Shown in pieces: positions 1 through 28,330 of a stretch of 28,392 bases of DNA. Both the position numbers and the translations under genes were made by a program. Position 1 is the first letter of the stretch. The number at the start of each line of letters is the position of its first letter. Source of the DNA: a virus (lineage: Duplodnaviria > Caudoviricetes). The stretch lies in IMG/VR virus record IMGVR_UViG_3300037041_000591, positions 1 to 28,392 of that record; one strand, given 5' to 3'. The notes under the pieces were generated by a model, which saw nothing but the letters and a program-made list of their open reading frames with translations, was not told the origin of the DNA and made no database searches.

Positions 1-127
1 GACAACTCAAGAGCGGAAACGTTAAGGCCGAAATAAATTTTAACGCTCCTCAAGTAACTTTTTAAACTCGTGGATCGGATTACATTACTTTGAAAAGATA
101 ATCGACGACGTTAAAAACTAAAATAAT
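1..127. repeat. Terminal direct repeat, copy 1 (circular assembly overlap)
   Basis: Bases 1-127 (gacaactcaagagcgg...aaaataat) are identical to 28266-28392. The 127-nt length matches a common assembler k-mer, implying a circular or permuted genome of about 28,265 bp. Confidence 0.95.
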
Positions 128-154
128 TTAGAAATTATTTATAAACTTGAAACA

Positions 155-766
155 ATGGCGGAAAATAAAAAATCTTTTGTTTTATACGCGGACTTGATCG
201 CAACCGTCGGAAAGTTGCCGGACGAGATCGCCGGAAAACTCTTTAAAATCGTCCTCGAGTACGTTAACGACCTTGATCCAACGATCGACGATCTCCTTTT
301 GTCCGTTGCCTTTGAGCCGATTAAATTACAACTCAAACGCGATTTAAAAAAGTACGAATGTAAACGCGAACAATGGTCGGACGCGGGTAAAAAATCCGCC
401 GAGGCTCGACGATTGGCGAAAATTGCGGCGGATAAATTGGAAAAGTTAAAAGGAACGGATTTAACGGACGTTGAAAATCGTTCAACGGTTTCAACTGATA
501 ATGTTAATGTTAATGTTAATGTTATAAAAGAAAATAAACAAAAGAAATTTATTAAACCAACGATCCAAGAGGTTCGAGACTATTGCAAGGAGAGAAAAAA
601 CTCCGTTAATCCGTCTCGGTTTGTTGACTTTTACGAGGCGAAAGGTTGGAAAATTGGAAAAAATACTATGAAAGATTGGAGATCCGCCGTCCGGACTTGG
701 GAGCAAACTCCGGATAATAAACCGGATAATAAAAAACTCGGCCTCAATGGATCGGAAAACTTTTAA
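155..766 (+). CDS. Phage replication initiator / replisome organiser (DUF6291-like N-terminus)
   Basis: N-terminal KKSFVLYADL motif, low-complexity NVNVNVNV linker, and C-terminal FIKPTIQEVRDYC...FVDFYEAKGWKIGKNTMKDWRSAVRTWE domain typical of phage initiators. Lies directly upstream of a DnaC-like ATPase. Confidence 0.8.
   Translation: MAENKKSFVLYADLIATVGKLPDEIAGKLFKIVLEYVNDLDPTIDDLLLSVAFEPIKLQLKRDLKKYECKREQWSDAGKKSAEARRLAKIAADKLEKLKGTDLTDVENRSTVSTDNVNVNVNVIKENKQKKFIKPTIQEVRDYCKERKNSVNPSRFVDFYEAKGWKIGKNTMKDWRSAVRTWEQTPDNKPDNKKLGLNGSENF
454..523. repeat. Iteron-like repeats inside the initiator gene (candidate origin)
   Basis: AACGG repeats, an inverted repeat CGTTGAA-N5-TTCAACG (469-487) and a tandem (AATGTT)x4 array, all in the linker-coding region, analogous to lambda O iterons. 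Confidence 0.5.
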
Positions 767-871
767 AACGAAAAAACTTGCAAAATAAATTTAAAATAAG
801 TAAACGCCAAAAAAAATTATTAACAATCTTGATCGTTTGTAAAATTATATTATTTTTTCAAATTATATTTT

Positions 872-879
872 TATATTTG
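872..879 (+). promoter_or_regulatory. Bacteroidota sigma-A -7 box TATATTTG
   Basis: Exact TAnnTTTG match in the AT-rich intergenic region 767-907, 28 nt before ATG 908. No clearly spaced -33 TTG. Confidence 0.6.
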
Positions 880-907
880 CGATCGGAACTTTATTAAATC
901 TTGAGAA

Positions 908-1612
908 ATGGAAATTACTTTATCAATGTCGTTGAGGGAACGTTTTTGGAGATACGCGAACTTTATAACCGAAAATAAATATACGGTCGACGACGAAAAT
1001 CAAATCCAATTAAAAAAAATTATTGAAGCGGTTGAAAACTCTCCGAAAGGTTTACTCGTTTGCGGTAAAACTGGATCGGGTAAAACATTTATTTTTGAGG
1101 TACTCTCGAGAATTTACCGAGGGCCGTTCGATCCCGAGAGGTTTATCCTCCGACATTGCGACGCGATCGTCGCGAAGTACGAAAAAAACGGCGAGGATTG
1201 TTTCCTCGAGGAGAAAAACCTCAATATCGTTTACGACGAACTTGGTCGAGAAAAAAATCCGGCAAAATATTACGGTTCCGATTGCGACGTTATGCAAAGA
1301 GTTATCCTCAAACGATACGAACTTTTTAAACGACAAGAGGCCCGAACTTATTTTACGAGTAATTATTCCGCTCAAGATTTACGCGAGAGATACGGCGATC
1401 ATTGTTTTTCGAGGCTCTCGGAAATGGTACAAATAATTAACCTCGGAGTCGCTCAAAATTATAAGGATCGGAGATCGGACGCGGTTCCTTTTGTCGGAGG
1501 TTTGCCGGAGGTTTTACCTTATTGGAAACAAACGGCCCCGACAAAAAATCCGCCGGACAATCCCGAATTTATGAACCTCGCGAAAAGTATCGCGGAAAAA
1601 ATGAAGCGTTAA
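908..1612 (+). CDS. DnaC/IstB-like AAA+ helicase loader
   Basis: Walker A GKTGSGKT, Walker B-like YDELG, FTSNY...YGD..FSRL.EM motifs. Adjacent to the initiator. Confidence 0.85.
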   Translation: MEITLSMSLRERFWRYANFITENKYTVDDENQIQLKKIIEAVENSPKGLLVCGKTGSGKTFIFEVLSRIYRGPFDPERFILRHCDAIVAKYEKNGEDCFLEEKNLNIVYDELGREKNPAKYYGSDCDVMQRVILKRYELFKRQEARTYFTSNYSAQDLRERYGDHCFSRLSEMVQIINLGVAQNYKDRRSDAVPFVGGLPEVLPYWKQTAPTKNPPDNPEFMNLAKSIAEKMKR

Positions 1613-1616
1613 AGAT

Positions 1617-1841
1617 ATGATAATGATTACCGTATTAAATGATAAGGACGGAGATTATCAAGTTAAAATTTATCGCGACCGAGATATTATAAACTCGAAA
1701 GTTTTATCGATCGATCAATCCTCGACACTTTACCGAGAAAAATATTATTTTCAAACACAAAAGGCGGCGGAGATTTTCGAAATCGAATACAATAAAACCG
1801 ACGCAAAAAAATTAGTTAAACGATTTTTAAAATCAAAATAA
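1617..1841 (+). CDS. Hypothetical protein
   Basis: 74-aa ORF tightly packed in the + strand early operon. Confidence 0.7.
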   Translation: MIMITVLNDKDGDYQVKIYRDRDIINSKVLSIDQSSTLYREKYYFQTQKAAEIFEIEYNKTDAKKLVKRFLKSK

Positions 1842-1846
1842 AAAAT

Positions 1847-2053
1847 ATGATTAATGAAACGACTTGGTTTTATTGGCTCGTATCTTTAGGAGACGCGGAT
1901 AAAATATCGGAGGCGATCGTTAAAGAGATAAACGATAAAACGGATCAACCTTTACAATTATTTTTATTTTACGGACTCAATCCCGATACGATAACGCAAA
2001 CCGAGTACGAGGAAATGATCGGAAAAATTTTAAAACTAAAACCAAAAAGATGA
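1847..2053 (+). CDS. Hypothetical protein
   Basis: 68-aa ORF with an A-rich leader and ATGA overlap with the next gene. Confidence 0.7.
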   Translation: MINETTWFYWLVSLGDADKISEAIVKEINDKTDQPLQLFLFYGLNPDTITQTEYEEMIGKILKLKPKR

Positions 2054-2355
2054 CAAAAGAGGAGAGAGATAATTTCGACCTCGACGTTTTAAACGCCTTG
2101 GCGAAATTCCCAAAAGACGACGACAACGGAGTCGCTTACGTTCGCGTAAAAATGGAGGGCCAAAAAATTGAGAATACTTTTTTACATACTCGATCCAGTT
2201 ACGGAGCAATTCAAGGAATAATTTATCACTTGATAAGTAAAAAAGAAATCCGAACTCAAGTCCTCAACGCTATGTTAAATTTTTTCAAACAAAATAAGGA
2301 CGAGATCGCCGACTTTTCCGAATATCTCCGACAAATCAAAAACGAAAATTTATAA
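2050..2355 (+). CDS. Hypothetical protein
   Basis: 101-aa ORF, translationally coupled on both sides. Confidence 0.75.
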   Translation: MTKEERDNFDLDVLNALAKFPKDDDNGVAYVRVKMEGQKIENTFLHTRSSYGAIQGIIYHLISKKEIRTQVLNAMLNFFKQNKDEIADFSEYLRQIKNENL

Positions 2356-2356
2356 A

Positions 2357-2881
2357 ATGATTAACTCGATCGAAATAAAAATCGATAACGATATAAAAAA
2401 AATAGTCGGAGACTTTTTAAAAAATCGAAACGTCGGAGAACGTGGTGAGTTTGACGGAGATTTCCGAAAACAATATATCGGATTTATCGCCGAGGCGATT
2501 GTTTATAAATTCTTTTTCGGAAATTATCCCGATATAACAATCGGAAACGATAACGGGATCGACTTTATTTTGAACGGAAAAAATATCGACGTCAAATCGA
2601 GCGAGACAACGAAAAAGATTAACGATAATTTTGTCGTTACCGTCGTCCTTTCTCAACTATCAAACAAATCGGAGGCGTATATTTTTACTTTTGTTAATCC
2701 GGAGACGTCGATTTTAACTCTTGTCGGTTGGATTGATAAAAAAATATTTTTAAGGCTCTCGAATTTCGTTCCGAAAGGATCGGATCGGTACAAGTCGGAC
2801 GGATCAACTTTTAAAATGATAACCGATAATTTTGATTTGAGGATTTCCGATCTCCTCGATATTAAGTATCTCAAACCGTAA
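2357..2881 (+). CDS. PD-(D/E)XK restriction-endonuclease-like nuclease
   Basis: G..AE helix (YIGFIAEAIV), then DNGIDF and NIDVKSS, giving the E...D...(D/E)xK catalytic arrangement, followed by YIF...LVGWI strands. Confidence 0.65.
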   Translation: MINSIEIKIDNDIKKIVGDFLKNRNVGERGEFDGDFRKQYIGFIAEAIVYKFFFGNYPDITIGNDNGIDFILNGKNIDVKSSETTKKINDNFVVTVVLSQLSNKSEAYIFTFVNPETSILTLVGWIDKKIFLRLSNFVPKGSDRYKSDGSTFKMITDNFDLRISDLLDIKYLKP

Positions 2882-2900
2882 AAAATTAACAAATATAAAA

Positions 2901-3251
2901 ATGGAAACAAGCAACGAAACCCGAAAAGAAAATTATCAATTTAAGTATGTTTTTACCGAGGACGAGATCAAGGAGAAATCGAAACAACTAGCGAGAGCGA
3001 TACAAGCGAGGCTCGAACTGGAGGACGAAAAGAAAACCGCCGCCTCCGAATTTAAAGCAAAGATCGAGGCGAAAGTTTCCGAGTCGAACTTGATCTCGAA
3101 CCATATCAATAACGGTTACGAATACTTGTTTAAAACTTGCGACGTTGTTCTCGACTTTGTAACGGGCCGGAAAACTTATTTTTTCGAGGGAGTTGAGGTC
3201 GGAGTCGAAACAATGACAAAGGAGGACTATCAAAAACAAATCGGCGAATAA
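2901..3251 (+). CDS. Hypothetical protein (coiled-coil N-half)
   Basis: 116-aa ORF with an A-rich leader and charged heptad pattern. Confidence 0.8.
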   Translation: METSNETRKENYQFKYVFTEDEIKEKSKQLARAIQARLELEDEKKTAASEFKAKIEAKVSESNLISNHINNGYEYLFKTCDVVLDFVTGRKTYFFEGVEVGVETMTKEDYQKQIGE

Positions 3252-4151: not shown

Positions 4152-4538
4152 ATGTTAGAACAAAAAAAAATTTTATATCTCGACGCTCTCGCGACTTGTC
4201 TCGGCAACGTTACCGAGGCGACGACTCTCGTCGGTATGTCTCGCGCAACTCATTACGACTGGATTAAAAACGATCCGGAGTTTAAGGCCGCGTTCGACGC
4301 TCAAGATTACGGCGAACAATTAAAAGATTTAATCGAGAAAAAACTCGTCGAGAAATTAAATCTCAACGATACCGCCGTTATTATTTTTATGGCGAAAACA
4401 AAATGTAAAGATCGCGGATATATCGAACGACAAGAGATCGACGTTTCAAAAATTCCCGTTAATTGGATCGAGGAAAAATATTCGGATAATGAAGTTAACG
4501 AAAAAGCAATCGGAGGCGATCGACCTCCTCGAGGATAA
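4152..4538 (+). CDS. terS: Terminase small subunit
   Basis: N-terminal HTH (GNVTEATTLVGMSRATHYDWIKNDPEF) and AVIIFMAKTKCKDRGY motif. Overlaps the terL start. Confidence 0.85.
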   Translation: MLEQKKILYLDALATCLGNVTEATTLVGMSRATHYDWIKNDPEFKAAFDAQDYGEQLKDLIEKKLVEKLNLNDTAVIIFMAKTKCKDRGYIERQEIDVSKIPVNWIEEKYSDNEVNEKAIGGDRPPRG

Positions 4539-5796
4539 ACAAACGACGGAGTTACTTTTCGGAGGAGGAGCCGGAGGAGGTAAATCGATTTTCGGTTGTT
4601 ATTGGATCACAAAAAACGCGATACAATATCCGGCGACTCGTTGGTTAATCGGACGATCCGTTTTAAAAACTTTAAAGGAGACGACGCTTAATTCGCTTTT
4701 TGATTTGTTTCGAATACAAGGGATCGCGCGAAACGTACATTACAAAATAAACTATCAATCAAATTTAATAACGTTTTTCAACGGTTCCGAGATACTCCTC
4801 AAGGACTTGTTTAATTATCCGAGCGATCCGAATTTCGATGAACTCGGTTCCTTGGAAATATCCGGCGCGTTCGTCGACGAGGCAAATCAAATAACGGAGA
4901 AATGTAAAGAGATTTTAAAATCCCGTATTCGATACAAACTCGACGAGAATAATATTATCCCTAAAATTTTATACACTTGCAACCCCGCGAAAAATTGGAC
5001 GTACTCGCAATTTTATAAACCTTGGCGAGAGGGATCAATAAATAAAAATAGGGCCGTTATTCAATCACTCGCGATTGATAATCCGTATATCTCGAAACAT
5101 TACCTAGAGAACTTGAAAACTCTCGACAAGGTTTCAAAGGAGAGACTACTTTTCGGAAATTGGGAATACGACGACGATCCGGCGAGATTGATTAATTTCG
5201 ACGCGATAACGAATATTTTTACAAATAACTTTCAAACGAAAGGAAATAAATATCTATCGGCGGACGTTGCTCGATTTGGAGACGATCAAACCGTTTTAAT
5301 CGTTTGGGACTCGTTAAAGGTTGTCGATTATAAATTGATACCGAAATCCTCAATCGTTGAGGTTGTCGACGCGATTAAATCCCTTGAGGTTAAACACGCG
5401 ATCCCGAGATCGCAAGTCGTTATCGACGAGGACGGAGTCGGAGGAGGGGCCGTCGATCTCTTGTCCGGTTGCAAAGGTTTCGTTAACAACTCGAGAGCGT
5501 TAAACGGAGAGAACTATCAAAACTTAAAATCTCAATGTTATTTTAAACTGGCGGACTTTATTAATTCAAATCAAATCGGTTGGGCCGATTGCGATACGAT
5601 CACAAAGGAAAAGTTAATCGAGGAACTCGAGCAAGTAAAGCGAAACAATATCGACAAGGATCAACGCCTTTCGATTATCCCAAAAGATAAAGTAAAAGAA
5701 TTGATCGGACGATCGCCGGATATTTCCGACGCCTTGGCGTTGAGAATGTTTTTCGAACTCTCTCCTCCGCCTCGAGTACGCTCTCGAAATTATTAG
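4489..5796 (+). CDS. terL: Terminase large subunit
   Basis: Walker A GGGAGGGKS, Walker B FVDEA, coupling motif TCNP, nuclease domain SADVARFGDD...SPDISDALA. Confidence 0.95.
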   Translation: MKLTKKQSEAIDLLEDKQTTELLFGGGAGGGKSIFGCYWITKNAIQYPATRWLIGRSVLKTLKETTLNSLFDLFRIQGIARNVHYKINYQSNLITFFNGSEILLKDLFNYPSDPNFDELGSLEISGAFVDEANQITEKCKEILKSRIRYKLDENNIIPKILYTCNPAKNWTYSQFYKPWREGSINKNRAVIQSLAIDNPYISKHYLENLKTLDKVSKERLLFGNWEYDDDPARLINFDAITNIFTNNFQTKGNKYLSADVARFGDDQTVLIVWDSLKVVDYKLIPKSSIVEVVDAIKSLEVKHAIPRSQVVIDEDGVGGGAVDLLSGCKGFVNNSRALNGENYQNLKSQCYFKLADFINSNQIGWADCDTITKEKLIEELEQVKRNNIDKDQRLSIIPKDKVKELIGRSPDISDALALRMFFELSPPPRVRSRNY

Positions 5797-9583: not shown

Positions 9584-11557
9584 TTGACGGAGATTTATAT
9601 AAATACCGAACTCATTGAACTATACTCGGACGAAATTATCGTTATGAGTTACGCGGTTAATAATCTTTTCGAGATCGAGAACCGACAAGGATCGTACTCG
9701 AATACGTTTAAAATTCCGGCGACAAAAAAAAATAACTTGATCCTCGGATTTTCGAACAACGTTTTAAGTATTTCGGATTTACCTTATACGAAAATACCTT
9801 GTTTAATTTATACCGACGGACTTTTAGAAGTCGAGGGAATTGCGCAAATAATTACGGCGAGTCGGAGCGAATACGAAATCCGTATTTTATCGGGTAATTC
9901 GAATTGGTTTGAGTTGATCGCCGATAAAAGTATTCAATCGGCTTTATTCGGTTGCGCGTTCTCTCAATATTGGAACGTTTTAACCGTTTCCGCAAGTCGC
10001 GCGAATATTTGGACGGACGTTTTTATTTATCCGAATATTGATTACGGAGAATTATTTTTTTTACCGGCGGGGCCGTACGATATAACTTTCGATAAACTTT
10101 ATCCGGCGGTTTATGCAAAGTATTTATTTAAAAAAATATTCGAGGACGCCGGACTCTCGATCGAGTCCGATTGGTTTGAAAATGATCCATTATTCGAAAA
10201 ACAAATAATCCCTTTTTCCTCGGACTGGAAAAGAGATCGAGATTACTCAACTCGTAACCGTTGTAATTATACACTCGGAACGGACGTAATCCAAAACGCC
10301 GCCGGATTTATTCCGATTAACGTACATACAAACGTCGGACACGTTCTCGACTCGCCTTGTTTTAATTTCCGTCTCGGAGATACGATAACAATTCCGTCGA
10401 CTCCGTTTTTTTTAAATCCAATAAGACAAATCGCCGAAACTTTTTGCACTCTTGACGGAGCGATCGTAACGGTTAACTTTAATATAAACTACGAAACCGA
10501 TACTCTCGCAACTTGCGCCGGAACGACGACGCAAATAATTTGCGATTACGTTGATATTAACGGAAATACTCAACTATTTAATTTTTTTCCGGTCGTTTCC
10601 GGTTGTCAAGCGTTTACGAATGTAACCGGATCGATTACTTTAAACGACGTCGGACGAGGCGGACTTCGTATATCTATGCAACAATGTAAAATATACGCCG
10701 GATCGACTTTCGATTTTATTATCGAGCCGAGCGGACTCGACGAGGGCGATCTCGATATTAATACGGCCTTTAACTTTTTAACTCTCGGCGGAATTTTGCC
10801 GGATATTTCTCGGACTGATTTTATCCTTTCGATCGCAAATCAATACGGATTAATTTTCGAACAAACTCCGTTAACTAATAACGTTAAGATTTTTCAGTTT
10901 GGAAAAATTATCGGAAATATTCCGAACGCGATCGATTGGTCAAAAAAACTTGATCTCTCGGACGATCCGACGATCTCGTTTTTATCGGATAATTATTCGC
11001 GTAATAATTATTTTCAATACGCCGAGGACTCGGAGGACGCTTATCTTTTACGACAACCGAATTACGGACGCGGAAACTTTATCGTAAACGCGGACGCGAA
11101 CAATACGGAGCAAATAATTTTTCAGTCGGTATTCTCGGCGGTTATCCGGTTATTATCTTTTTCCGGATCGCTCGAACTCGCTTACATTCCCTCGAACGAG
11201 GGGACGGCGTTTACAATCGTTAACGGTCGTTTCGCTTACGTTAACTTTGACGCGTCGACGGCGATAACTATAAACGGACAACCGCTTTTAATTCCTCAAC
11301 CTAACGTATATTTTGAGGAGTTGATTTTTCAAAACTTACTCGATAAAAATTATCCCTTACTTACTCAAACGATCAACTCAAATAAGGCGGTTACTTGTTT
11401 AATACGTTTGAATAATCTCGACGTAAATCAACTCGATTTTAGTCGTCCGATTTGGATTGATTATTTCGGAGCCTATTTTTATTTAAACGAAATTTCTCAA
11501 TACAAGGTAAACGAAAAGGACTCGACTCAAATAACTTTAATAATAATACAAAACTAA
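9584..11557 (+). CDS. Putative baseplate hub / tail-tip protein
   Basis: 657 aa, TTG start. N-terminal ELY...RQGSYSNTFKIPATKKNN and C-terminal LDFSRPIWIDYFGAYFYLNEI patterns. Adjacent to the tape measure gene. Confidence 0.6.
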   Translation: MTEIYINTELIELYSDEIIVMSYAVNNLFEIENRQGSYSNTFKIPATKKNNLILGFSNNVLSISDLPYTKIPCLIYTDGLLEVEGIAQIITASRSEYEIRILSGNSNWFELIADKSIQSALFGCAFSQYWNVLTVSASRANIWTDVFIYPNIDYGELFFLPAGPYDITFDKLYPAVYAKYLFKKIFEDAGLSIESDWFENDPLFEKQIIPFSSDWKRDRDYSTRNRCNYTLGTDVIQNAAGFIPINVHTNVGHVLDSPCFNFRLGDTITIPSTPFFLNPIRQIAETFCTLDGAIVTVNFNINYETDTLATCAGTTTQIICDYVDINGNTQLFNFFPVVSGCQAFTNVTGSITLNDVGRGGLRISMQQCKIYAGSTFDFIIEPSGLDEGDLDINTAFNFLTLGGILPDISRTDFILSIANQYGLIFEQTPLTNNVKIFQFGKIIGNIPNAIDWSKKLDLSDDPTISFLSDNYSRNNYFQYAEDSEDAYLLRQPNYGRGNFIVNADANNTEQIIFQSVFSAVIRLLSFSGSLELAYIPSNEGTAFTIVNGRFAYVNFDASTAITINGQPLLIPQPNVYFEELIFQNLLDKNYPLLTQTINSNKAVTCLIRLNNLDVNQLDFSRPIWIDYFGAYFYLNEISQYKVNEKDSTQITLIIIQN

Positions 11558-14500
11558 TGGCGGACAATATAACAAAAGAGGTTTTACTCCGAGTTAAACT
11601 CGATCCGAGCGATCTCGAAAAGCAAGGCGACGCGTTGCAAAAATCACTCAATAAATTAAAGGAGGAAACGAAAAAACTCAACAAAGAGTTAAACGATAAA
11701 AATACTGGAGTCGAACGTCGAAAAGAAATCGAGGATCAACTCCTCGAACTAGGTCGTAAAACAAAAGAGTATTCGAAACAAATATCCGCGAATAATAAAG
11801 AGATCGAGTTTCAAACAAAACTATCGAACGCGCAAGAGGGATCGAACGAACAACTCCGTTTGCAACTTTCGGCGTTAACAAAAACTTATAATGGATTAAG
11901 TAAAGAGGCGAGAGAAAATTCGATCGAGGGGCAAACGTTACAAAAAACAATTAAAGGAATATCCGACACGTTAAAAGAAAACGAGTCCGCCGTCGGAGAT
12001 AATCGCCGGAACGTTGGTAATTATAAAGAGGCTCTCGAGGAAACTCTCGCTCCATTGCTAAAGCAACGGGAGGCGTTGGTCGCTCAATCGGAGGCGTTAA
12101 AACAAACCGGAGAGCAACAAAAGAAATTCGGTTTCGGAGCCGGAATAAAAACCCTCGACTCCGATATTAATGGATTTAACGCAAGTCTCGGAGAGACGAC
12201 CTCGTCGTTTGAGTCAATCGATAAACAAGTTATGTCGGTCGATCAATCAATCGCCGCGCTCGATCAAGAGATCGAGAGAACGCGGATCGGATTTCGTCAA
12301 AATACCGACGCCGGAAAAGAATACGAGAATACTCTCGACGGAATGACTCAAAAACTCGCCGATCTTAAAAAACTTGCGCCAACGCTTGACTTAAATTCCG
12401 AGGAGTACAAAAAAACAAACGACGCGATCCGCGAGACACAATTCGAAATCGATAAAGCAATCGGAAAGGTCGACGAGTTTGGAAACAAGGAGCCAAAAAA
12501 TCCGGCAAAAGAGGCAATGGACGACACGTTCGAAGCCGCAACCGCCTTAACGTCCTCGATCGGTTTGTTATCGATTGCGTTCGGAGAGAGCGAGGATATT
12601 CAAGAAGTACAAAAAAAGGCTTTACAAGCGGTCGCGATCGCTCAAACGGCGGCGAATATCGCAAAAAGCAAAGGCGCGATTATATCAACGATCGAACTTG
12701 TAAAAACAAAGGCGGCGACGGCGGCTCAAATCGTTTATACAACCGTTGTCGGAGCCTCGACCGGAGCGTTAAAGGCGTTTAAAATTGCACTGGCAACGAC
12801 CGGAGTCGGAGCGTTGGTCGTTGGACTTGGATTATTAATCGCGTACCTTGCAAGGAATAAAGACAAAACGGAGGAGTTGACGGAGGCTCAACAAGCGTTA
12901 AGGGATGCAACGGAAAAATTACGAGAGGAGGAGACAAAAGAATTAGTACAAGCGACAAAAATTTTCGGAGAGTTGCAAAAGTCGAACGCCGGATCGAAAC
13001 AACGTAAACAATTAATCGACCAAGTAAATTCGACCTACGGAACTACCTTAAAAAACTTATCGGACGAGGCCGCGTTTTTGGCGGCGGTCGCCAAGGCTCA
13101 AGAGGCGGTAATAAAAAACATACAAACGAAAATCGCGGCCCGTATCGTCGAGACAAAACTCGAGGCGGAGATTACCGATCTTTTACAAAAACAAGAGTTT
13201 TTAAACGAAAATCAAATCAAGAGGGCCGATTTACTTATTCAATTAAAAAAAGCAACTAATGACGAGGAGCGTAAAAGAATACAAGCGGAAATCGACTCGA
13301 TAAAAAACCAAGATAAATTAAAAAAGAATATCGACGGAGTTATCGGATCGTTGAATACTTACGGAAACGAACAAGATAAATTAACAAAGGTCGGAGAAAA
13401 CTTAAACGACGAGGCAATCCTCGGATATGTCGAGCAACGTTTTAGAGTTGACGAGTTAACTCAAGAATTAGTAAATTTACAAAGTCAAGTCGTAACGACC
13501 GGAGATAAAACAAAAAAGTCGACTCAAGATAACCTCGCCGCGATCCTTGCGTTTGAGAAAAAAGTTTTAAACGAAAGTATCGACAACCGGATCGAGGCCC
13601 TCGCGGATCAAGAGCAAAAGGAACAAGAGGCACTCGCGACAAATGTCGAGAGACAAAAAAATCAACTCGAGGAGGAGTTTAAAAATCTCAAGGCGGTAAC
13701 GGAAAAAGAAAAAACGGAAAAAGAAAACGCGAGGATAATTTTAAACGATCGACTCAATCAATTAACGGAGGATCAACTTTCGAAACAACTCGACATAAAT
13801 CAAAAGTATAGAGATTTAGAGGAGGCCGCAAGGATCGAGGCCGCTCAAAAAACGCTCGACCGACAATCGATCGCGTTAGAAAAAGCGAGACAAACTCGTC
13901 GACTTGATATTGAGGAAAATATAAAAGACGAGAGAGAGAAATCGATCGCGTTAATACAACTCGAAATCGATACGCAAAAAGAACTAATACGGATCGCGCA
14001 AGAGTCCGCCGAACTCGATTTGTTTATTACTCCCGAGGAGCAAGATAAAATCGACGACGCAAAAATAAAACTCCGAGAGTTGGAAATCCAACTCAAACAA
14101 ATAAACGAGAACCCGATCGCAATTATACCGGACGACTTCGAGAAAAAGTTTCAACAAGTCGCCGACATTATTTCCGACGTTTTCAAATCTCTCTCCGATG
14201 CAATTAACGCAAACTTCGCAAACGCAACGGCTGAGGTTGAAAAAAACGGAGCGGAACAAGTTAAAGTAATTGAAAAAACAACTTTAACCGAAAAGCAAAA
14301 ACAAAAACAAATCGAAAAGATAAACGACGAGACCGCGAGAAAAAAATATCAACTCGAGGTTGACGCGTTTAATTTTAATAAAGGAGTGCAAATAACTCAA
14401 GCGATTATCTCGACCGCGTCCGCCGTTATTGCGGCTCTTGCAAACCCCGTTCCGTTTGTCGGAGCCGTACTCGCCGGAGTTGCCGCCGCCACTGGAGCCG

Positions 14501-14925
14501 TACAAATCGGAATTATCGCAAGTCAACAACCGCCGCCGCCTCCGTTTTACGAGGGAGGATATACGGGAGACGGAAATCCTCGAGAGGAGTCTATCGCCTT
14601 GGGGCGTAAAAGTTACCAATACCACAAAGGCGAGTATGTCGTTCCGAATAAGATTTTAAAAACGGAAACCGGATCGGCTCTCGTTGCAACTCTCGAGCGA
14701 ATGAGATCGGGTAAAATATCGAGTTTGGGATTGTCGGGATTTGCCGACGGAGGATTTACGGCGAACGATATTCGGGCCGGAGTACAAGCGACAATCGCAA
14801 CCGACCGACTCGCCTCTCAAATATCGGACGCGATTTCGAACGTTCAAATAATTACAAGAGTTACCGACATAAATCGAGTAAATAAAAACCTCGCTCAAAA
14901 TAAGATCGCCGCAACGTTGCGATAA
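11557..14925 (+). CDS. Tail tape measure protein
   Basis: 1122 aa, long coiled coil, GDNRRNVGNY motif, Ala/Gly hydrophobic segments (ALATTGVGALVVGLGLLIAY), C-terminal FYEGGYTG...HKGEYVVP...FADGG. Confidence 0.9.
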   Translation: MADNITKEVLLRVKLDPSDLEKQGDALQKSLNKLKEETKKLNKELNDKNTGVERRKEIEDQLLELGRKTKEYSKQISANNKEIEFQTKLSNAQEGSNEQLRLQLSALTKTYNGLSKEARENSIEGQTLQKTIKGISDTLKENESAVGDNRRNVGNYKEALEETLAPLLKQREALVAQSEALKQTGEQQKKFGFGAGIKTLDSDINGFNASLGETTSSFESIDKQVMSVDQSIAALDQEIERTRIGFRQNTDAGKEYENTLDGMTQKLADLKKLAPTLDLNSEEYKKTNDAIRETQFEIDKAIGKVDEFGNKEPKNPAKEAMDDTFEAATALTSSIGLLSIAFGESEDIQEVQKKALQAVAIAQTAANIAKSKGAIISTIELVKTKAATAAQIVYTTVVGASTGALKAFKIALATTGVGALVVGLGLLIAYLARNKDKTEELTEAQQALRDATEKLREEETKELVQATKIFGELQKSNAGSKQRKQLIDQVNSTYGTTLKNLSDEAAFLAAVAKAQEAVIKNIQTKIAARIVETKLEAEITDLLQKQEFLNENQIKRADLLIQLKKATNDEERKRIQAEIDSIKNQDKLKKNIDGVIGSLNTYGNEQDKLTKVGENLNDEAILGYVEQRFRVDELTQELVNLQSQVVTTGDKTKKSTQDNLAAILAFEKKVLNESIDNRIEALADQEQKEQEALATNVERQKNQLEEEFKNLKAVTEKEKTEKENARIILNDRLNQLTEDQLSKQLDINQKYRDLEEAARIEAAQKTLDRQSIALEKARQTRRLDIEENIKDEREKSIALIQLEIDTQKELIRIAQESAELDLFITPEEQDKIDDAKIKLRELEIQLKQINENPIAIIPDDFEKKFQQVADIISDVFKSLSDAINANFANATAEVEKNGAEQVKVIEKTTLTEKQKQKQIEKINDETARKKYQLEVDAFNFNKGVQITQAIISTASAVIAALANPVPFVGAVLAGVAAATGAVQIGIIASQQPPPPPFYEGGYTGDGNPREESIALGRKSYQYHKGEYVVPNKILKTETGSALVATLERMRSGKISSLGLSGFADGGFTANDIRAGVQATIATDRLASQISDAISNVQIITRVTDINRVNKNLAQNKIAATLR

Positions 14926-15167: not shown

Positions 15168-16331
15168 ATGAAAGTCGCGAAATTTAAAATCTCGGGAAAT
15201 ATCGGAGAGCCTGATCCTTTCCTCGCCGCGTTCGGAGTAATTGACGACTCGACAAACGCGCAAATGATCGGAGACTTTATCGACGCCAATACGGACGCCG
15301 ATACTTTGGAAATCGAGATCGACTCGAACGGCGGATCGGTAACGACCGGATTTGCAATTCACGACAAGTTAATTAACTCCGGTAAAAAAATAATAACGAA
15401 AGGTTACAAAGTTAATTCAATCGCGACCGTTGTTTTTTTAGCGGGATCGGAGAGACTACTTTCAAAAAACGCGGAGTTTGTAATTCATAACCCTTGGATC
15501 GACGGTTCGAACTTGGGTAATATGCCATTAACCGCCGACGAACTCGACGCAATCGCGGAGGACGTTCGTAACTCGGAGGATAAAATTTTCAACTTTTACA
15601 AAGAGACTTTAAAATTAAACGACTCGGATCAATCGATCGTTAAAGATTTAATGTCCAAAGATACCGACCTCGGTTCTCAACGCGCGATCGATTTAGGTTT
15701 CGCAACCGGAACCCTCGAGCGTAAAAAAGCAAAGGCCGCTTATACCGAATTAGTATTTAATAAATATAAATCAAATAACGATAATAAAATGAATATCGAG
15801 GAGCAAAATAAAAAAATAAGTTTACTGGAAAAAGGAGTAAACGCGATCTTGAACTTATTAAAAACCGAAAAGAAAAACGCAACCGTTACGGCGGAGGACG
15901 GAGTTACTCTTTATTTTGAGGGCGACGTTTTGGAAGTTGGTTCGAAATTATTTATCGACGAGGAAATGATTACTCCGGCTCCGGACGGAGAACATACTCT
16001 CGATAGCGGAGAGGTTGTCGTTATTTTCGAGGGAACCGTTACGGAAATCCGTCCCGTTATGGTTGACGATAGCGCGAAAAAGATCGCCGATCTTGAGGCG
16101 GAAAATAAAAGATTATCGGACGAATTGGCCGCAAAGTCAAACGATACAAATAACGAAGTTATCCTCGAGGAGGTTAACAAACTTAAAACCGAAATCGCCA
16201 ATTATAAAAAAGCGGTCGCCGGAGATAAGAGAGCCGAAAAGAAAAATGAAAAGAAAACCGACGAGCCTTTAAAGCCTTGGCAAAAAAGAATTGAGTCGGA
16301 TAAAAGGATTAACGGAACGTTTGAAAAATAA
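15168..16331 (+). CDS. ClpP-like prohead protease with C-terminal scaffold region
   Basis: IDSNGGSV, NSIATVVFLAG (catalytic Ser) and FVIHNPW (His). Acidic APDGEHTL domain and coiled-coil tail. Upstream of the capsid gene. Confidence 0.85.
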   Translation: MKVAKFKISGNIGEPDPFLAAFGVIDDSTNAQMIGDFIDANTDADTLEIEIDSNGGSVTTGFAIHDKLINSGKKIITKGYKVNSIATVVFLAGSERLLSKNAEFVIHNPWIDGSNLGNMPLTADELDAIAEDVRNSEDKIFNFYKETLKLNDSDQSIVKDLMSKDTDLGSQRAIDLGFATGTLERKKAKAAYTELVFNKYKSNNDNKMNIEEQNKKISLLEKGVNAILNLLKTEKKNATVTAEDGVTLYFEGDVLEVGSKLFIDEEMITPAPDGEHTLDSGEVVVIFEGTVTEIRPVMVDDSAKKIADLEAENKRLSDELAAKSNDTNNEVILEEVNKLKTEIANYKKAVAGDKRAEKKNEKKTDEPLKPWQKRIESDKRINGTFEK

Positions 16332-16618: not shown

Positions 16619-17617
16619 ATGCCATCAGGAATTAATTACTCACCAATAGAGTTTACCGGCCCCGCGTTCGAGGAGGTATTTATGGAGTTATTGTTTCAAA
16701 ACGAAACCGTTGCTCAAGAAAAAGTACGTTTAATAAACGGGATCAAAAACGAAACCGTTATTACGGAAATGGGTATTACCGTAAATTTACAGGCGTACGT
16801 TTGCGGCGTTCCAACTCCGAGCGGTTCATTCAATATGAACGACGCCCTTTTACGTCCTTGTAAATTAATGGCGTACGACGAATTTTGTCCCGACGATTTG
16901 AGATTTTCGCGTTTCGCGTCCTCAATGAGAGCGGGAGCGTGGGAAAACGTATCGGAGGAGTGGGTTCGTATTGTCCTTGAGACGTACGGCGTACAAATGT
17001 CGAGACAAATGGAGGAGGATTTTTGGAACGGAGCCTCCGCCGCCACAAAGGTAGCCGTTGCCGCGTTGTCAGTTGGCCCGAATTTAACCGCCGAGGAAAA
17101 GGCGTACGTTGCCGCCGCTCCGACAACTCTTTGCGACGGTATCGTTACATACTTGATATACAATAACGGAGCGGTTGGAACCTCGATCGACGTTGTAGGA
17201 ACAACTATCGACGCAACGAATATTTGGGACGAGTACAAGGCCGTTTATTCGGTTATTCCGGTGGTAATGTTAAAGCCGAGTAATATTGCAATGACTAAGA
17301 TTTTCGCGCCGGAGTCTCACGCGCAACTTATTCAGTTGTATAATACGGATCAAGCGTTCCGCGATAAGTTTTTAATTACTCCGAGCGGAGATTTTTATTT
17401 CTTAGGAGTAAAAATCGAGTTTGTTCCTTTGCCGGAGGACACAATGATCGCGGCCCGTTGGTCGGATATTTTACTCGGAACCGACTCGACGAGCGATTTC
17501 TCTTATTTGCAAATCGATAAGGTTGCAAATAACGCCGACACTCGTTTTATTAAGGGAGTATTTACTCAAGCCGGAGCGGTTGTTTCGCAATCTCAAAAAG
17601 TCCTTTACAAAGGATAA
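16619..17617 (+). CDS. Major capsid protein
   Basis: 332 aa after the protease/scaffold and followed by a strong terminator. EFCPDDL, FWNG and CDGI patterns resemble Bacteroidota phage HK97-fold capsids. Confidence 0.8.
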   Translation: MPSGINYSPIEFTGPAFEEVFMELLFQNETVAQEKVRLINGIKNETVITEMGITVNLQAYVCGVPTPSGSFNMNDALLRPCKLMAYDEFCPDDLRFSRFASSMRAGAWENVSEEWVRIVLETYGVQMSRQMEEDFWNGASAATKVAVAALSVGPNLTAEEKAYVAAAPTTLCDGIVTYLIYNNGAVGTSIDVVGTTIDATNIWDEYKAVYSVIPVVMLKPSNIAMTKIFAPESHAQLIQLYNTDQAFRDKFLITPSGDFYFLGVKIEFVPLPEDTMIAARWSDILLGTDSTSDFSYLQIDKVANNADTRFIKGVFTQAGAVVSQSQKVLYKG

Positions 17618-22992: not shown

Positions 22993-23642
22993 AAAAAGCG
23001 ATTTTATTAAGCAACCGAGAAATAAATCTCGTTGAGGGATCAAAGGCCTATCCTCTTAATATGCCAACGCAACCGAAAGGAGACGGAACGCCGGAGAGTT
23101 TAACTCGGATCGTTGAGTTTTTAAAAGTTGAAACCTCGCCTCGTTACAAGCGAAAAGAGGTCGACGGAAAGGTCGTCGCGACTTATTGTAATATTTACGC
23201 GTTCGATTACGCTTATCTTGCGGGAGCCTATATCCCGCGCGTTTGGTGGACGCCGGACGCGATTAAAACTCTTAACGTTATGGACGTTCAAGCCAAGTAC
23301 GGAACGACCGTCCTCGAGTTAAACGCGAACTCGCTTTACGATTGGTTCGTAAACTATTCCGATCACTTTGGTTGGGAAAAGCCGTCGAGCCTTGAGGACG
23401 CTCAAAAGAGAGCAAACGCCGGAGAGATTGTTATTATCGTCGCAAAACAAAAGATCGTCTCGCGTTCGGGCCATATTACGGCGATCGTACCGGAGTCGAA
23501 CGGACAAAAGGCCAAGGTTATAAACGGAGAGTTTATTCCGTTGCAATCTCAATCCGGATTTAACAATAAAAAATATTTCGCGGATAATTGGTTTAAAAAT
23601 CCTCGTTATTCCGGCTCCGGTTGTTGGGCCTTTAAACCTTAA
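22989..23642 (+). CDS. Endolysin candidate, CHAP/NlpC-like Cys-His hydrolase
   Basis: TYCNIY (Cys), NANSLYDW, SGHITAIV (His) and QSG in papain-like order. Last gene of the lysis cassette, with no other endolysin visible. Confidence 0.55.
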   Translation: MKKAILLSNREINLVEGSKAYPLNMPTQPKGDGTPESLTRIVEFLKVETSPRYKRKEVDGKVVATYCNIYAFDYAYLAGAYIPRVWWTPDAIKTLNVMDVQAKYGTTVLELNANSLYDWFVNYSDHFGWEKPSSLEDAQKRANAGEIVIIVAKQKIVSRSGHITAIVPESNGQKAKVINGEFIPLQSQSGFNNKKYFADNWFKNPRYSGSGCWAFKP

Positions 23643-25109: not shown

Positions 25110-25110
25110 T

Positions 25111-25422
25111 ATGCAAACTCAAATCCTTTTTAAAATCGACGGTTTAGACGTTGAGGTCGAACTCGATAAAAACTCGGAATTTTGTTCGGCTTTAAAAATT
25201 GTCGATCCCGATAATTGGTTCGTCCTCGAGTTTCAACTCCGAGACGTAAAGGTCGAGGAGTACGCCGAGCGGGTTGTTTGGGATCACTCGAGACAACAAC
25301 CTCGACACGCTCAAGTAATGGATTACGATCCTTTCGAGCAAGGTTTCGAATATTGCGAGGAGGAGGTTAAAGAATTTATATCCGAGCAACCGCCGGAGAA
25401 ATGGAAACAACTCGAACAATAA
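25111..25422 (+). CDS. Hypothetical acidic protein (start revised to ATG 25111)
   Basis: ATG 1 nt after the previous stop, 103 aa. Confidence 0.7.
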   Translation: MQTQILFKIDGLDVEVELDKNSEFCSALKIVDPDNWFVLEFQLRDVKVEEYAERVVWDHSRQQPRHAQVMDYDPFEQGFEYCEEEVKEFISEQPPEKWKQLEQ

Positions 25423-25446
25423 AAACAAAAATCAAAACTTGAGACA

Positions 25447-25725
25447 ATGGAAACTATTATTACGATCGGTAATCGGATCGATATTCTCGAACTTGAGATC
25501 GAACAACTCGAGGAGGATATTAAATTAATCGACTCTTTAATCGGATCGAGGCAAAAATTCGGAGACTCGGTAATCGTTACTCAGTATAAAAACGATCTCG
25601 ATTTAATAACTCGGCGTTACATTCATAAAAAAGCAATCGAGAAAAAACTCTCAACGATCAAAAACCTAAAAGAATTATCGGACGATTATTCGACTCCGTT
25701 AATTATTTACAAATGGAAACTTTAA
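25447..25725 (+). CDS. Hypothetical coiled-coil protein
   Basis: 92 aa, heptad pattern. Confidence 0.7.
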   Translation: METIITIGNRIDILELEIEQLEEDIKLIDSLIGSRQKFGDSVIVTQYKNDLDLITRRYIHKKAIEKKLSTIKNLKELSDDYSTPLIIYKWKL

Positions 25726-26681
25726 AATCAATTATAAAAATGGAAAACGAGGAAACAATCGAAACCGCTCAAGTCGTATCGGCGGACGTAATTTATCAAC
25801 AAGATAAAGCCGCAATCGATATGCAAATTACAACCGCGAAAACTTATCCGCGATCATTAAAGAGATCAACCGAGAACGCAATCGCGATCGTTACTCTTGA
25901 CAAAGAGACCGCCGCAACTTGTACTTATTCCGTCCCAAGAGGAGGAAAGGCGATAACGGGGCCGTCCGTACATTTGGCGAAAATACTCGCGCAAGTTTGG
26001 GGAAATATGAGAGTCGAGGCGAAAGTTATCTCGATCGAGGACAAAACGGTTACGTCTCAAGCGATCGCGTTCGACCTTGAGAATAATCTCGCGATCAAGG
26101 TCGAGGTTAAACGTTCGATAATGACAAAGTCCGGTCGAATGTCGGACGATATGATCGTCGTTACTGGAAACGCGGCGAACTCGATCGCTTTACGAAACGC
26201 CGTCCTCTCGGTTATACCCAAGGCCGTTGTCGATAAAGTTTACAACGAGGCAAAGAGAACAATTACCGGAGACCTTTCCGACGAAACGAAGTTAATCGCC
26301 GGACGAAAAAAAGTAATCGACTCGTTAAAAGAGGCGTACTCGGTAACGGAAAAAGAAATCCTCGGCGCAATCGGTAAAGCCTCAACAACTCATTTAACTG
26401 GAGACGATCTCGTCGTTTTAATTGGTATCGGTCAAGCGATTAAGGACGGAGATACGAGCGTCGATCAAGCGTTCAAAGGAAAACAAACCTCGTCGGCTCC
26501 GATCGTTGTTTCGGAGGAGGAAATTAATCGACTCGCTCAACTTGCGGTTAACGAAATCGGAGACATAAAAAACGATGAGGAGTTAAACGTTTACGTCGAA
26601 AAATTCCGAGAACTTGTAAACTTGCAATCGTTTAAAACAATGGTCGGAGCGAAACGAAAAGAGTTGCAAAAGTCGAATTAA
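25713..26681 (+). CDS. Putative ssDNA-annealing protein / recombinase (alternative start 25740)
   Basis: QITTAKTYPR...YSVPRGGKAITGPSVHLA..LAQVWGN motif, directly upstream of a RecE-like exonuclease. Function inferred from context. Confidence 0.5.
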   Translation: METLKSIIKMENEETIETAQVVSADVIYQQDKAAIDMQITTAKTYPRSLKRSTENAIAIVTLDKETAATCTYSVPRGGKAITGPSVHLAKILAQVWGNMRVEAKVISIEDKTVTSQAIAFDLENNLAIKVEVKRSIMTKSGRMSDDMIVVTGNAANSIALRNAVLSVIPKAVVDKVYNEAKRTITGDLSDETKLIAGRKKVIDSLKEAYSVTEKEILGAIGKASTTHLTGDDLVVLIGIGQAIKDGDTSVDQAFKGKQTSSAPIVVSEEEINRLAQLAVNEIGDIKNDEELNVYVEKFRELVNLQSFKTMVGAKRKELQKSN

Positions 26682-26698
26682 AAAAATAACTTGAGCAA

Positions 26699-27505
26699 AT
26701 GGAAACGCAAACAAGGAAAACAAAAATCGACGAACTCGTTTCAAGGTTGTTAAATGGGGAGGAGCCTTTGAGTTACTCCTCCATTTCAAACTTTGCCGAG
26801 TCGCCAAAACATTTTATTGAGTACAAACTCAAGGAAAAGAAATCGACCGACGCAATGATTTACGGATCGGTTGTTCATTGTCTCGTATTAGAGGAGCAAA
26901 ATTTCGAGAAGCGTTACGCCGTCGCGCCGACTTGCGATCGCCGGACAACGATCGGAAAAAATATTTATTCCGCGTTTATTGACGAGGCCCAAGGTCGCGA
27001 GGTTATATCTCAAGAGGTTTATTCTCAAGCGTTGGAAACAAAACGAGCGATCCGATCAAACTTTCCGGCGAATAATCTTTTAAAGCAAGACGGACAAAAT
27101 GAGATCGCCGCAACGTGGGAATATTTAAACTTTAAATTTCGCGGATTTATCGACAAGTACAAGGCCGGAAAATTTATCCTCGATCTAAAAACTTGCGCGG
27201 ACGCGTCGCCTCGAAAGTTTCAAAGAGATATAATCGCGTTCGATTATCATTTACAAGCGGCTATGTATTTAACCGCGATCGGAGAGGACGTCCCTTATTA
27301 TTTAATTGCGGCGGATAAATCCGGCGGAGTATCGGTTCACTTACTTGACGAGCGTTTAATTAATCTCGGTCGAGAGCGATACGCCTTTTTAATGGAAAAC
27401 CTCAACCGTTGTATTTTACTCGACGCGTTTAATCGGAGTTTCGATTTCTATTCCGATCGAGGAGACGGAATTTTCGTCGCCGAAAAACCCGCTTACCTTT
27501 ATTAA
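26699..27505 (+). CDS. PD-(D/E)XK exonuclease (Exo VIII / DUF3799-like)
   Basis: LSYSSI...SPKHF, GSVVHCLVLE, RGFID...ILDLKT and YHLQAAMY motifs. Confidence 0.85.
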   Translation: METQTRKTKIDELVSRLLNGEEPLSYSSISNFAESPKHFIEYKLKEKKSTDAMIYGSVVHCLVLEEQNFEKRYAVAPTCDRRTTIGKNIYSAFIDEAQGREVISQEVYSQALETKRAIRSNFPANNLLKQDGQNEIAATWEYLNFKFRGFIDKYKAGKFILDLKTCADASPRKFQRDIIAFDYHLQAAMYLTAIGEDVPYYLIAADKSGGVSVHLLDERLINLGRERYAFLMENLNRCILLDAFNRSFDFYSDRGDGIFVAEKPAYLY

Positions 27506-27552
27506 TGTTAATAAAAAACAACGGTTGACGACGGTCGTTAAATAAAAAATAA

Positions 27553-27576
27553 TAGATTTGTATAATTTTAATTTAT
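27553..27576 (+). promoter_or_regulatory. -7 box TAGATTTG with conserved downstream leader
   Basis: TAGATTTGTATAATTTTAATTTAT in the intergenic gap before ATG 27583. Confidence 0.65.
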
Positions 27577-27582
27577 AACTAA

Positions 27583-28026
27583 ATGGAAACAAACGAAACA
27601 AACCAAAACAAGGAGATGAACGTCGTCCCTTTTAAAAACGCTCCGGTTGAAAAATTGGAACGCGTCGAACTTGCGATCCCTAATATTGGATTGATTATAA
27701 ATTTTGTCGACGAGAATTATCCGGCGATTAAATTACGACTTGTAAAAAACTACAAAGAGGCGAGAGAGTCGTTTCCGAATTGGTTTAACTTTAACGTCGA
27801 TATTCGTTACAACGCGAAAGGTTGCAACTTTATTTTAATCGTTCATTTTCAAGTCGCTTTACAAGATAAAGCGAGGCCCGAGTTTTTTAAATCTAATACG
27901 CTCGATATTGAGGGAGTAACTGGAGACTCGGTCGAGGATATAATCGAAAAGTTAAACGATAAATATTTAATAAATGTCGATCACAAACCGGAGTCAAATA
28001 CGGACGGACAAGACGACAACGATTAA
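27583..28026 (+). CDS. Hypothetical protein
   Basis: 147-aa ORF downstream of a promoter box. Confidence 0.75.
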   Translation: METNETNQNKEMNVVPFKNAPVEKLERVELAIPNIGLIINFVDENYPAIKLRLVKNYKEARESFPNWFNFNVDIRYNAKGCNFILIVHFQVALQDKARPEFFKSNTLDIEGVTGDSVEDIIEKLNDKYLINVDHKPESNTDGQDDND

Positions 28027-28330
28027 GATTGTCGAAAGCCTCCTCGAGTCTCGCGATTACTTGCGGGACGACGACGAGAGACTTGTCGCGAATACTCTTT
28101 ATCAATTTATAAAGGACTCCGGTAAATCGCCGGATCAAATGTCCGCAAGTGAATTATTAAAAGAGTATTCTCTCGGAAACTTACCAACGGCGGACTATAT
28201 TACGAGAGTCCGCCGTAAATTACAAGAGGAAAACCCGCTCCTCCGAGGCTCTCGATATAAAGAGAGACAACTCAAGAGCGGAAACGTTAAGGCCGAAATA
28301 AATTTTAACGCTCCTCAAGTAACTTTTTAA
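27974..28330 (+). CDS. Conserved phage hypothetical protein
   Basis: LRDDD..L and ITRVRRKLQEENPLLRG motifs. On the circle it precedes the initiator gene. Confidence 0.75.
   Translation: MSITNRSQIRTDKTTTIKIVESLLESRDYLRDDDERLVANTLYQFIKDSGKSPDQMSASELLKEYSLGNLPTADYITRVRRKLQEENPLLRGSRYKERQLKSGNVKAEINFNAPQVTF

Follow-up and report, generated by a model that had tools for sequence, protein, structure and literature searches.

How does a phage genome come to lose nearly every CAG and CTG, and to accumulate words that contain CG? The question is raised by a stretch of 28,392 nucleotides, IMG/VR record IMGVR_UViG_3300037041_000591 (Duplodnaviria; Caudoviricetes), which was analysed at its full length and is referred to here as the window. 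A preliminary description of this DNA, made from the letters alone, saw the bias in contiguous words and proposed directional T-to-C conversion as its main cause; it missed a second layer, a depletion of gapped motifs in which an A and a T stand six to nine bases apart. The cause is selection on words, and mainly not T-to-C repair; we consider a layered model of restriction avoidance to be the probable explanation overall. Bases 1-127 recur at 28266..28392 (+) as a 127-base repeat, an assembly overlap of a circular genome, so the window represents a complete 28,265-bp circular genome, circularly permuted. The bias runs throughout 1..28265 and affects contiguous words, sites of Type II-like form and A-N6..9-T gapped motifs alike.

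The window is a freshwater phage of Bacteroidota type. Strains 90-99% identical to it are present in riverine, sediment, lake-water, estuary and viral metagenomes, and its best cultured relatives infect Bacteroidota, which makes that phylum the likely host group. Within its clade, capsid identity is 93% for group A, 75% for group B, 69% for phage M and 66% for phage N. Group A consists of the window and one strain 86-90% identical to it, and both share the signature.

The counts behind the question are confirmed. In bases 1-3000, recounting returned exactly the three CAG/CTG first reported (495, 1071 and 2196), all in ACTG/CAGT context, and the first kilobase does hold 11 GATC. Over the window, CAG/CTG occurs 35 times, against 695 expected from base composition or 225 from a Markov model. 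CAC/GTG follows with 85 vs 695 (0.12x), CTA/TAG with 167 vs 1017 (0.16x) and CAT/ATG with 252 vs 1017 (0.25x); CAA/TTG is not low (1.26x). CA/TG as a whole stands at 0.48x and CG at 2.24x. CATG, GAWTC, GGWCC and CCNGG, of which none had been noticed by eye, number zero in the window, and the words described as abundant are so: GATC 2.4x, TCGA 3.7x, CCGG 2.8x, CGCG 3.7x, GACG 2.5x, CCTC 2.4x and GACTC 1.9x. Only the guanine-plus-cytosine (GC) content needed adjusting, from an estimated 35-40% to a slightly higher 40.6%.

Protein coding does not account for these numbers. Gln is almost always CAA, as first noted (CAA 359, CAG 5), and CTG makes up 5 of the 775 Leu codons, and the depletion persists after a synonymous-codon shuffle, with 7 off-frame CAG vs 128 and 17 off-frame CTG vs 158. 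The loss affects all three codon frames and both strands, is evenly spread along the genome, and extends to the 1,976 bases of non-coding DNA (CAG 0 vs 16, CTG 1 vs 13). It even reaches the proteome: His and internal Met form 0.6% and 0.9% of residues in the window, compared with 1.2-1.3% and 1.8-2.3% in M and the controls, although His is also low in phage N (0.7%). Nor is it the normal signature of the presumed host phylum, as none of 401 Bacteroidota genomes comes near it.

Part of the loss has the form of orthodox Type II avoidance, in which palindromic or degenerate-palindromic sites of 4-6 bp fall to zero or close to it. With the A strains pooled, the counts are CCNGG 0/63, GCNNGC 0/53, GATATC 2/27, CCGCGG 0/17 and TGATCA 0/13; GTATCC is likewise at or near zero, and some contiguous motifs of the Type IIG/MmeI-like or Type III kind (GGATAC, AAGAAC and CGCNAG) are absent.

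The second layer emerges when pairs of bases are counted across a gap. All gapped counts reported here are judged against distant gaps in the same frame; an earlier null that pooled the strands was inflated by frame and strand bias, and its counts are not used. In the window, A..T pairs with 6, 7, 8 and 9 bases between them occur at 0.97, 0.84, 0.82 and 0.91 of expectation, so that A-N7-T and A-N8-T are 16-18% low genome-wide. The reverse pairs, T..A, stand at 1.00, 0.95, 0.99 and 0.99, which makes the effect specific to orientation, and the controls N and C give 0.96-1.00. The window alone yields 68 non-redundant depleted gapped motifs at gaps 3-10, compared with 1 at null gaps 14-21, and 65 of these 68 are compatible with an A..T interval of 6-9, the baseline being 7,117/37,648, or 19%. 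Examples, as observed/expected, are CAA-N8-TC (11/99), CA-N9-TC (26/131), TAC-N7-TC (7/52) and GGA-N6-TG (2/32). Half-sites such as CAA, CA, GGA, GAG, AAG, GTA and TAA are paired with TC, TG, CT, GT, TA and TTC, and are reused across many combinations and spacings, as judged by eye from the motif lists and 16x16 half-site tables. The same scan gives 87 motifs in A2, 62 in B1 and 25 in M (mostly with a TA half-site), and 2, 2 and 1 in the controls N, C1 and C3; one further sequence (L110), with 12 motifs but 11 at null gaps, was set aside.

These gapped motifs are not a by-product of protein structure. In a model of synonymous choice, terms for A..T at 6-9 raise the held-out log-likelihood by 274 and 363, far above control terms at gaps 12-15 (24 and 53) or for T..A (-2 and 9), which rules out structural periodicity. 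The motifs also turn over quickly: 28 of 114 depleted gapped motifs are kept between strains, compared with 997 of 1,838 when their halves stand at other gaps, which makes the loss twice as frequent, on a list that was chosen on the window.

The geometry is a familiar one. Type I enzymes recognise two half-sites and methylate an adenine in each, and their recognition domains are shuffled. Wherever Table 1 of PMC3874165 gives the interval between the methylated adenines of a characterised enzyme, it is 6-9, and the same paper describes Type IIB (BcgI-like) enzymes as sharing this geometry. From this geometry we infer that the gapped motifs would be restriction targets, and the layer very probably reflects Type I/IIB-like enzymes. 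Most of the 25 characterised Type I motifs occur too seldom for a judgement; TTAN7GTCY stands at 0/10.

The erased trimers are linked to this layer. The CAG, CAC, CAT and TAG that survive have a T partner less often than expected (for CAC, 11/23 at gap 7 and 10/24 at gap 8; for CAG in group B, 18/45 and 9/42), and the depletion of the 16 N-A-N trimers tracks partner avoidance with a rho of 0.55 in the window, 0.56 in B and 0.79 in M, compared with 0.02 in controls. Since survivors avoid a T partner, the more so the rarer the trimer, the trimers behave as half-sites.

To place these results in the genome, 41 genes were called by hand, all on one strand. The main features are as follows.

155..766, + strand: putative replication initiator of family DUF6291, with its best relatives in Flavobacterium and other Bacteroidota phages
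908..1612, + strand: DnaC-like helicase loader
2357..2881, + strand: 174-residue protein of a viral family with invariant G-x-D...D-x-K
4489..5796, + strand: terminase large subunit, the query used for gathering relatives
11557..14925, + strand: tape measure protein
15168..16331, + strand: Clp-type head maturation protease
16619..17617, + strand: probable major capsid protein; its match to a virion protein from Cellulophaga phage phi46:1 is at 42% identity
18718..20091, + strand: portal protein
25713..27505, + strand: phrog_3657 protein and exonuclease VIII-like gene, likely a recombination module

Pfam and PHROGs scans of the 41 proteins also place a holin gene in the window, and return no methyltransferase, Vsr, integrase, polymerase, or defence or anti-defence family; comparison of 25-26 non-structural proteins with NCBIfam and PADLOC gave no such family either, although small unknown open reading frames could hide one. 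Since no polymerase gene was found among the 41 proteins, replication likely relies on host enzymes. A 217-residue lysis-cassette protein (22989-23642), conserved in A, B and M, has no family match and no match among 50,697 phage records; Cys and His in its conserved stretches suggest that it may be an unclassified endolysin. At 4953-5148, differences from close strains fall in dense tracts, which suggests frequent recombination between strains.

The reading that we favour is layered avoidance of restriction. A host population whose restriction-modification arsenal is unusually large and changeable would, through long-term selection, have removed words from both strands of a phage that has no recognisable methyltransferase or anti-restriction gene as alternative protection. 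A first layer would consist of the Type II-like sites, which are at or near zero. The second would comprise the depleted gapped motifs, about 70 of them with A and T 6-9 bases apart, presumably Type I or Type IIB sites whose target-recognition domains are shuffled. In a third layer, whose cause is the least certain, CAG, CAC, CAT, TAG and GAAG are penalised beyond what the second explains, probably because no other half-sites are as common and because many contiguous sites that overlap one another contain them as well. Most of the enrichment of CG words and of the rise in GC content would be compensation. Of the transitions that abolish a site, the most frequent exchanges the target adenine for G, which would give the T-to-C pairs of depleted and enriched words.

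Simulation bears on this last step. Coding DNA was simulated with penalties on 13 contiguous words, on GCNNGC and on gapped pairs, together with a free GC term. The simulated and observed ratios are 1.99 vs 2.21 for CG, 3.0 vs 3.86 for TCGA, 3.0 vs 3.54 for CGCG, 2.5 vs 2.43 for GACG, 2.2 vs 2.34 for CCTC and 1.5 vs 1.52 for GGCC, where a GC-only simulation gives 1.12, 1.39, 1.22, 1.27, 1.12 and 1.31. The statement that avoidance does not explain the enrichments was thus mostly wrong, as penalties alone rebuild most of them. With the penalties in place, the GC weight beneath them shifts from -0.22 to -0.86, closer to the -1.2 to -1.3 of relatives. A separate L1 word model served as a lead only, since its positive and negative weights are partly interchangeable.

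Related phages show the same kind of signal with other words. Group B (~70% nucleotide identity) has likewise lost CAB, CTA, CTTC and CATC; GAA/TTC, GATC, CGCG and GCGC are lost in addition, and GGWCC is gained. One of its members contains two short phrog_757 DNA methyltransferase-like genes (L002:7171-7824 and L002:8405-9070) that group A lacks; in another member (L003) the second is fragmented. Phage M is a mirror image of the window (CG 0.12, TA 0.23, CTC 0.03, CAG 1.96). The 30.5-kb IMGVR_UViG_3300034096_000377 (L195/G406), a close relative with such a mirror-image extreme bias, has CG 0.10, TA 0.22, GAG/CTC 0.03 and CCC 0.14; in it Glu is 100% GAA, Pro is 95% CCA, Tyr is often replaced by Phe, and TA acts as a half-site. 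The signature of M also occurs in a 2-kb terminase contig within a Woesearchaeota bin (L149; CG 0.07, TA 0.20), probably a misbinned phage fragment of the M lineage. Phage N and most terminase relatives are unremarkable, with 33-35% GC; others (L039, L040, L044, L048; L127; L078) have biases of their own (TCA 0.26 and AGCT 3.1, or CG 0.25) and 7-25 depleted gapped motifs.

Across 130 sequences of at least 11 kb (viral contigs, prophage loci and host stretches), 108 carry at most two motifs. Among eight cultured Bacteroidota phages, phi46:1 has 84 motifs, phi39:1 has 35 and phi18:1 has 18 (first 35 of 39 kb), and the remaining five have 3-8 (two scanned in part). Two of these, phi46:1 (NC_021800.1) and phi39:1 (KC821626.1), were cultured on Cellulophaga baltica, and like the sister phages they carry the same kind of signal in other motifs. 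The contiguous shift in phi46:1 is milder and in the same direction (CA 0.73, CG 1.67, CAG 0.58). Neither has an annotated methyltransferase, whereas the other cultured phages have one to four, and this pairing of site avoidance with a missing methyltransferase is suggestive only. Outside these phages, two GC-rich prophage-like stretches from Cytophagales-order genomes (L278, G1296:C202:27000-46999; L279, G1234:C8:488000-507999) have A..T at 0.87-0.91 at gaps 7-8, and an unrelated viral contig, IMGVR_UViG_3300012920_000262 (L239), has CG 0.15 and CCG 0.03.

The host was sought in several ways. None of 80 terminase loci in genome contigs has the signature. The trimer rate of the phage would, by our arithmetic, give ~1 CAGCAG per Mb per strand, and the lowest rate in counts of CAGCAG and GACGAC over the 401 Bacteroidota genomes was ~90-110 CAGCAG; in 20 stretches from the most CAG-poor or GAC-rich of them, CAG was at lowest 0.58x. 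A capsid profile run against 351 genomes from each of three orders gave 1, 5 and 14 matches, the best at 40% identity and none with the signature, and a metagenome scan returned a single 1.6-kb relative. Systems of the kind called for are common in Bacteroidota: 206 of 301 genomes of the phylum have HsdS domains, several of them at least 11, and shuffling Type I loci are reported as ubiquitous in Bacteroidota (PMC7641763).

A number of results weigh against layered restriction. Where gaps 6-9 hold no T, the ratio remains 0.09x for CAG, 0.21x for CAC, 0.35x for CAT and 0.25x for TAG, and gapped sites explain only 2-3-fold of the loss of these trimers; Type II and gapped terms alone give CAG 0.64 and CG 1.47. 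Depleted MmeI-like NNNNAS 6-mers are not in excess (11/213 vs 111/1,949), by a test that is not applicable to CAG, CAC and TAG contexts, which are nearly empty. Several characterised Type I motifs are not depleted (GAAN6RTCG, 25 vs 20), and the search for a host found none, hence no enzyme is matched to any motif. Group B avoids sites despite its two methyltransferase-like genes; the loss of CG, CCB and GCC in M comes with no gapped signal; the rho between trimers and partners in phi46:1 is 0.15 and not significant; phi46:3, from the same strain as phi46:1, has only 4 motifs in 35 kb; and phages of one host species have no clearly shared motif sets. The simulation, finally, under-predicts CCGG (1.5 vs 2.7), GATC (1.7 vs 2.4) and CGATCG (7.0 vs 11.6), and leaving positive weights free on CG (+1.2), CTC (+0.9), GATC (+0.8), CCGG (+0.7 to 1.2) and GGCCC (+1.4 to 2.2) improves the held-out likelihood by a further 120 and 126. 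The positively weighted words are the words lost by phage M. This residue may represent missing or shrunken penalties; that methylated cytosines really are protected by a secondary force, which is what the preliminary description proposed, seems to us possible rather than likely.

The strongest rival accepts gapped avoidance and differs over the third layer. The loss of CAB, TAG and GAAG would come from one undescribed host defence with a target of 3-4 bases, such as a loose nuclease, a glycosylase or an adenine-directed modifier, whose specificity varies by host (in M: TA, GAG, CG). The preliminary description had raised avoidance of a very short defence target as its second idea, and for the contiguous part of the loss this may hold. 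Penalties of -2 to -4.5 on these words persist after gapped terms, the depletion remains without a T partner, no MmeI-like excess fills the gap, which leaves room for a short target, and the loss is strong enough to remove His and Met in A and B and Tyr in M. On the other side, survivors depend on their flanking bases: the surviving contexts are patchy and differ between groups (YCAGT and HCATT in A, RCAGA and TCATW in B), as expected from a union of longer sites; RCAGA in B is near expectation once T partners are absent, and the loss in phi46:1 takes the form of discrete 5-mers (CCAGA, GCAGG, CCAGG, CAGTG, CCAGT), which we read as an earlier stage of trimer loss. Together, the flanks and the 5-mers suggest many overlapping contiguous sites, and we regard one short-target defence as unlikely. 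A broader proposal holds that some Bacteroidota phages respond to shuffling Type I-like restriction by purging the entire half-site library, which would make a phage genome a readable record of the target-recognition repertoire of its host, and that an undescribed adenine-centred defence of 3-4 bases (CAB, TAG and GAAG here; TA and GAG in the sister lineage) has in addition rewritten codons and residues. It is doubtful, if somewhat less so.

Next comes the conversion first proposed, in which Vsr-like T:G-to-C:G repair or biased gene conversion at 5-methylcytosine contexts would drive the whole pattern. Its starting observation stands, since T-to-C related pairs of depleted and enriched words do exist and the GC content of the lineage is raised (41% vs 33-36% in relatives). 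Positive weights on CG, CTC, GATC, CCGG and GGCCC improve the held-out fit and restore the AT bias of relatives (-1.1 to -1.3), the same words are nearly erased in M, and Vsr is described as able to drive CTAGG to CCAGG in Escherichia coli (PMC2715241). As the main cause, conversion fails at invariant codons, in non-synonymous frames and in residue exchanges. We took 1,804 alignment columns invariant across A1, A2, B1 and M, in which a central T-to-C change in CAG, GTG or TTC would be non-synonymous, and where Vsr should therefore spare the T-words. They are not spared: invariant Gln is CAG in 1, 0 and 3 of 65 columns in A1, A2 and B1 vs 17 of 65 in M, and invariant Val is GTG in 0, 1 and 1 of 81 vs 24 of 81. 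Invariant Phe is TTC in 3 of 109 columns in B, and invariant Glu is GAG in 0 of 90 in M. The escape route at these codons is C-to-T, the opposite of the direction of conversion.

Where residues do change, they are not those that Vsr predicts, namely His to Arg, Met to Thr and Gln to Arg. At the His columns of M, 31 of 51 differ in the window, mainly to Phe, Tyr, Asn and Lys, and Arg is not among the nine commonest replacements; at its Met columns, 70 of 98 differ (Leu 15, Phe 10, Ile 10, Val 8, Thr 4). Tyr is replaced by Phe in M 41 times, and CGG forms 9% of Arg codons. Frames in which T-to-C is synonymous are no more depleted than others (CTG 15/156 vs 5/134 and 2/45), and strain differences at CTA lead to TTA (40), CGA (31) and CAA (22), and only 11 times to CCA. 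Turnover is fast, in that 2 of 32 aligned CAG/CTG are common to the two A strains, where most trimers are kept at 65-82%; for substitution polarity, the 18 listed differences that were polarised are too few, with two independent A strains and B too distant. Repair predicts no gapped A..T depletion, and the window has no vsr or methyltransferase gene in family scans. We therefore consider repair as the driver of the whole pattern very unlikely; the smaller positive bias for CG, CTC, GATC, CCGG and GGCCC leaves room for it as a secondary force. A mutation rate that is very high in specific contexts, and takes effect through load in a huge population, is formally conceivable, but it would not yield gapped A..T depletion either.

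Less probable still is an internal cause, in which the nuclease-like protein of 174 residues would cut CAB/TAG in host DNA and the phage would have purged its own targets. The open reading frame (2357-2881) belongs to a viral family of ~400 clusters and has invariant D...DxK residues, by which we take it to be a predicted PD-(D/E)XK-like nuclease. In a profile search among ~230 loci, the gene occurs only in A and B, the lineages that share CAB/TAG loss. Twelve other viral contigs with homologues (30-37% identity) have no such loss (CAG 0.77-1.30), the protein received no assignment in Pfam, PHROG, NCBIfam, PADLOC or PDB, and it accounts neither for the gapped motifs nor for M and phi46:1, in which the gene is missing. 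Least credible of all are avoidance of CRISPR protospacer-adjacent motifs (PAMs), codon or transfer RNA adaptation, and a host genome signature: PAM depletion in phages is reported in PMC12174588, but here the loss extends to either strand, every frame and non-coding DNA, the signature is missing from all Bacteroidota genomes sampled, and none of the three yields an orientation-specific A-N7/8-T depletion.

Restriction-site avoidance is well known; genome-wide depletion of Type I/IIB-like gapped sites appears to be new, as we did not find it in the literature. Our search, outside which most subscription papers lie, returned no paper that describes gapped-site or half-site depletion across phage genomes, no C. 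baltica methylome and no paper on the bias of phi46:1. Rusinov et al. (2018) state for almost 4,000 viruses that Type I and IIG sites are not avoided (PMC6286503), and the survey expresses the prevailing view that Type I specificities shift too fast for phages to avoid their sites. Dozens of such sites are nevertheless lost in the window, its sisters and two Cellulophaga phages; tests made site by site miss this, and the A-N7/8-T statistic detects it. If layered restriction is the right reading, avoidance would work against combinatorial immunity by removing half-sites, and restriction alone could raise phage GC by several points, invert the CG/CA balance and replace His, Met and Tyr. Gapped-motif depletion could then tie uncultured phages to host methylomes.

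The window shares with the phages of the 2018 survey, as described there, a non-integrating double-stranded DNA genome, elimination of 4-6 bp Type II-like sites and selection on both strands; it differs in the joint depletion of ~70 gapped Type I/IIB-like motifs and the near erasure of trimers. With Type I and Type IIB systems, as set out in PMC3874165, it has in common bipartite sites, one adenine per half on opposite strands, a spacing of 6-9 and recombined halves, although what is seen here is a footprint in the phage, in which Type I is not separable from Type IIB. The Dpd (7-deazaguanine) system was considered as the origin of a CAG/CTG target and rejected, as its motif is CxGCxG within a PvuII site (PMC10164549). 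E. coli Dcm/Vsr repair (PMC2715241) likewise combines depleted T-words with enriched C-words; it predicts loss by a central T-to-C change and nothing at gapped positions, and both predictions fail here. The view that Type I sites are not avoided was repeated in 2025 with one local exception, Marinomonas phages (PMC12455610), in which a Type I motif is described as absent from the early-injected region. There too selection acts against Type I sites, but on one motif in one region, whereas the window is affected in many motifs and evenly over the whole genome. A cultured counterpart is phi46:1, which shares a related capsid (42%), its 84 gapped motifs, the fall of CA and rise of CG, and the lack of an annotated methyltransferase; it differs in being milder (CAG 0.58), in its motif set, in having GATC, CCGG and GGCC at zero, and in carrying integrases. 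Cultured on Cellulophaga baltica, phi46:1 and phi39:1 are ready test systems for the avoidance seen in the window.

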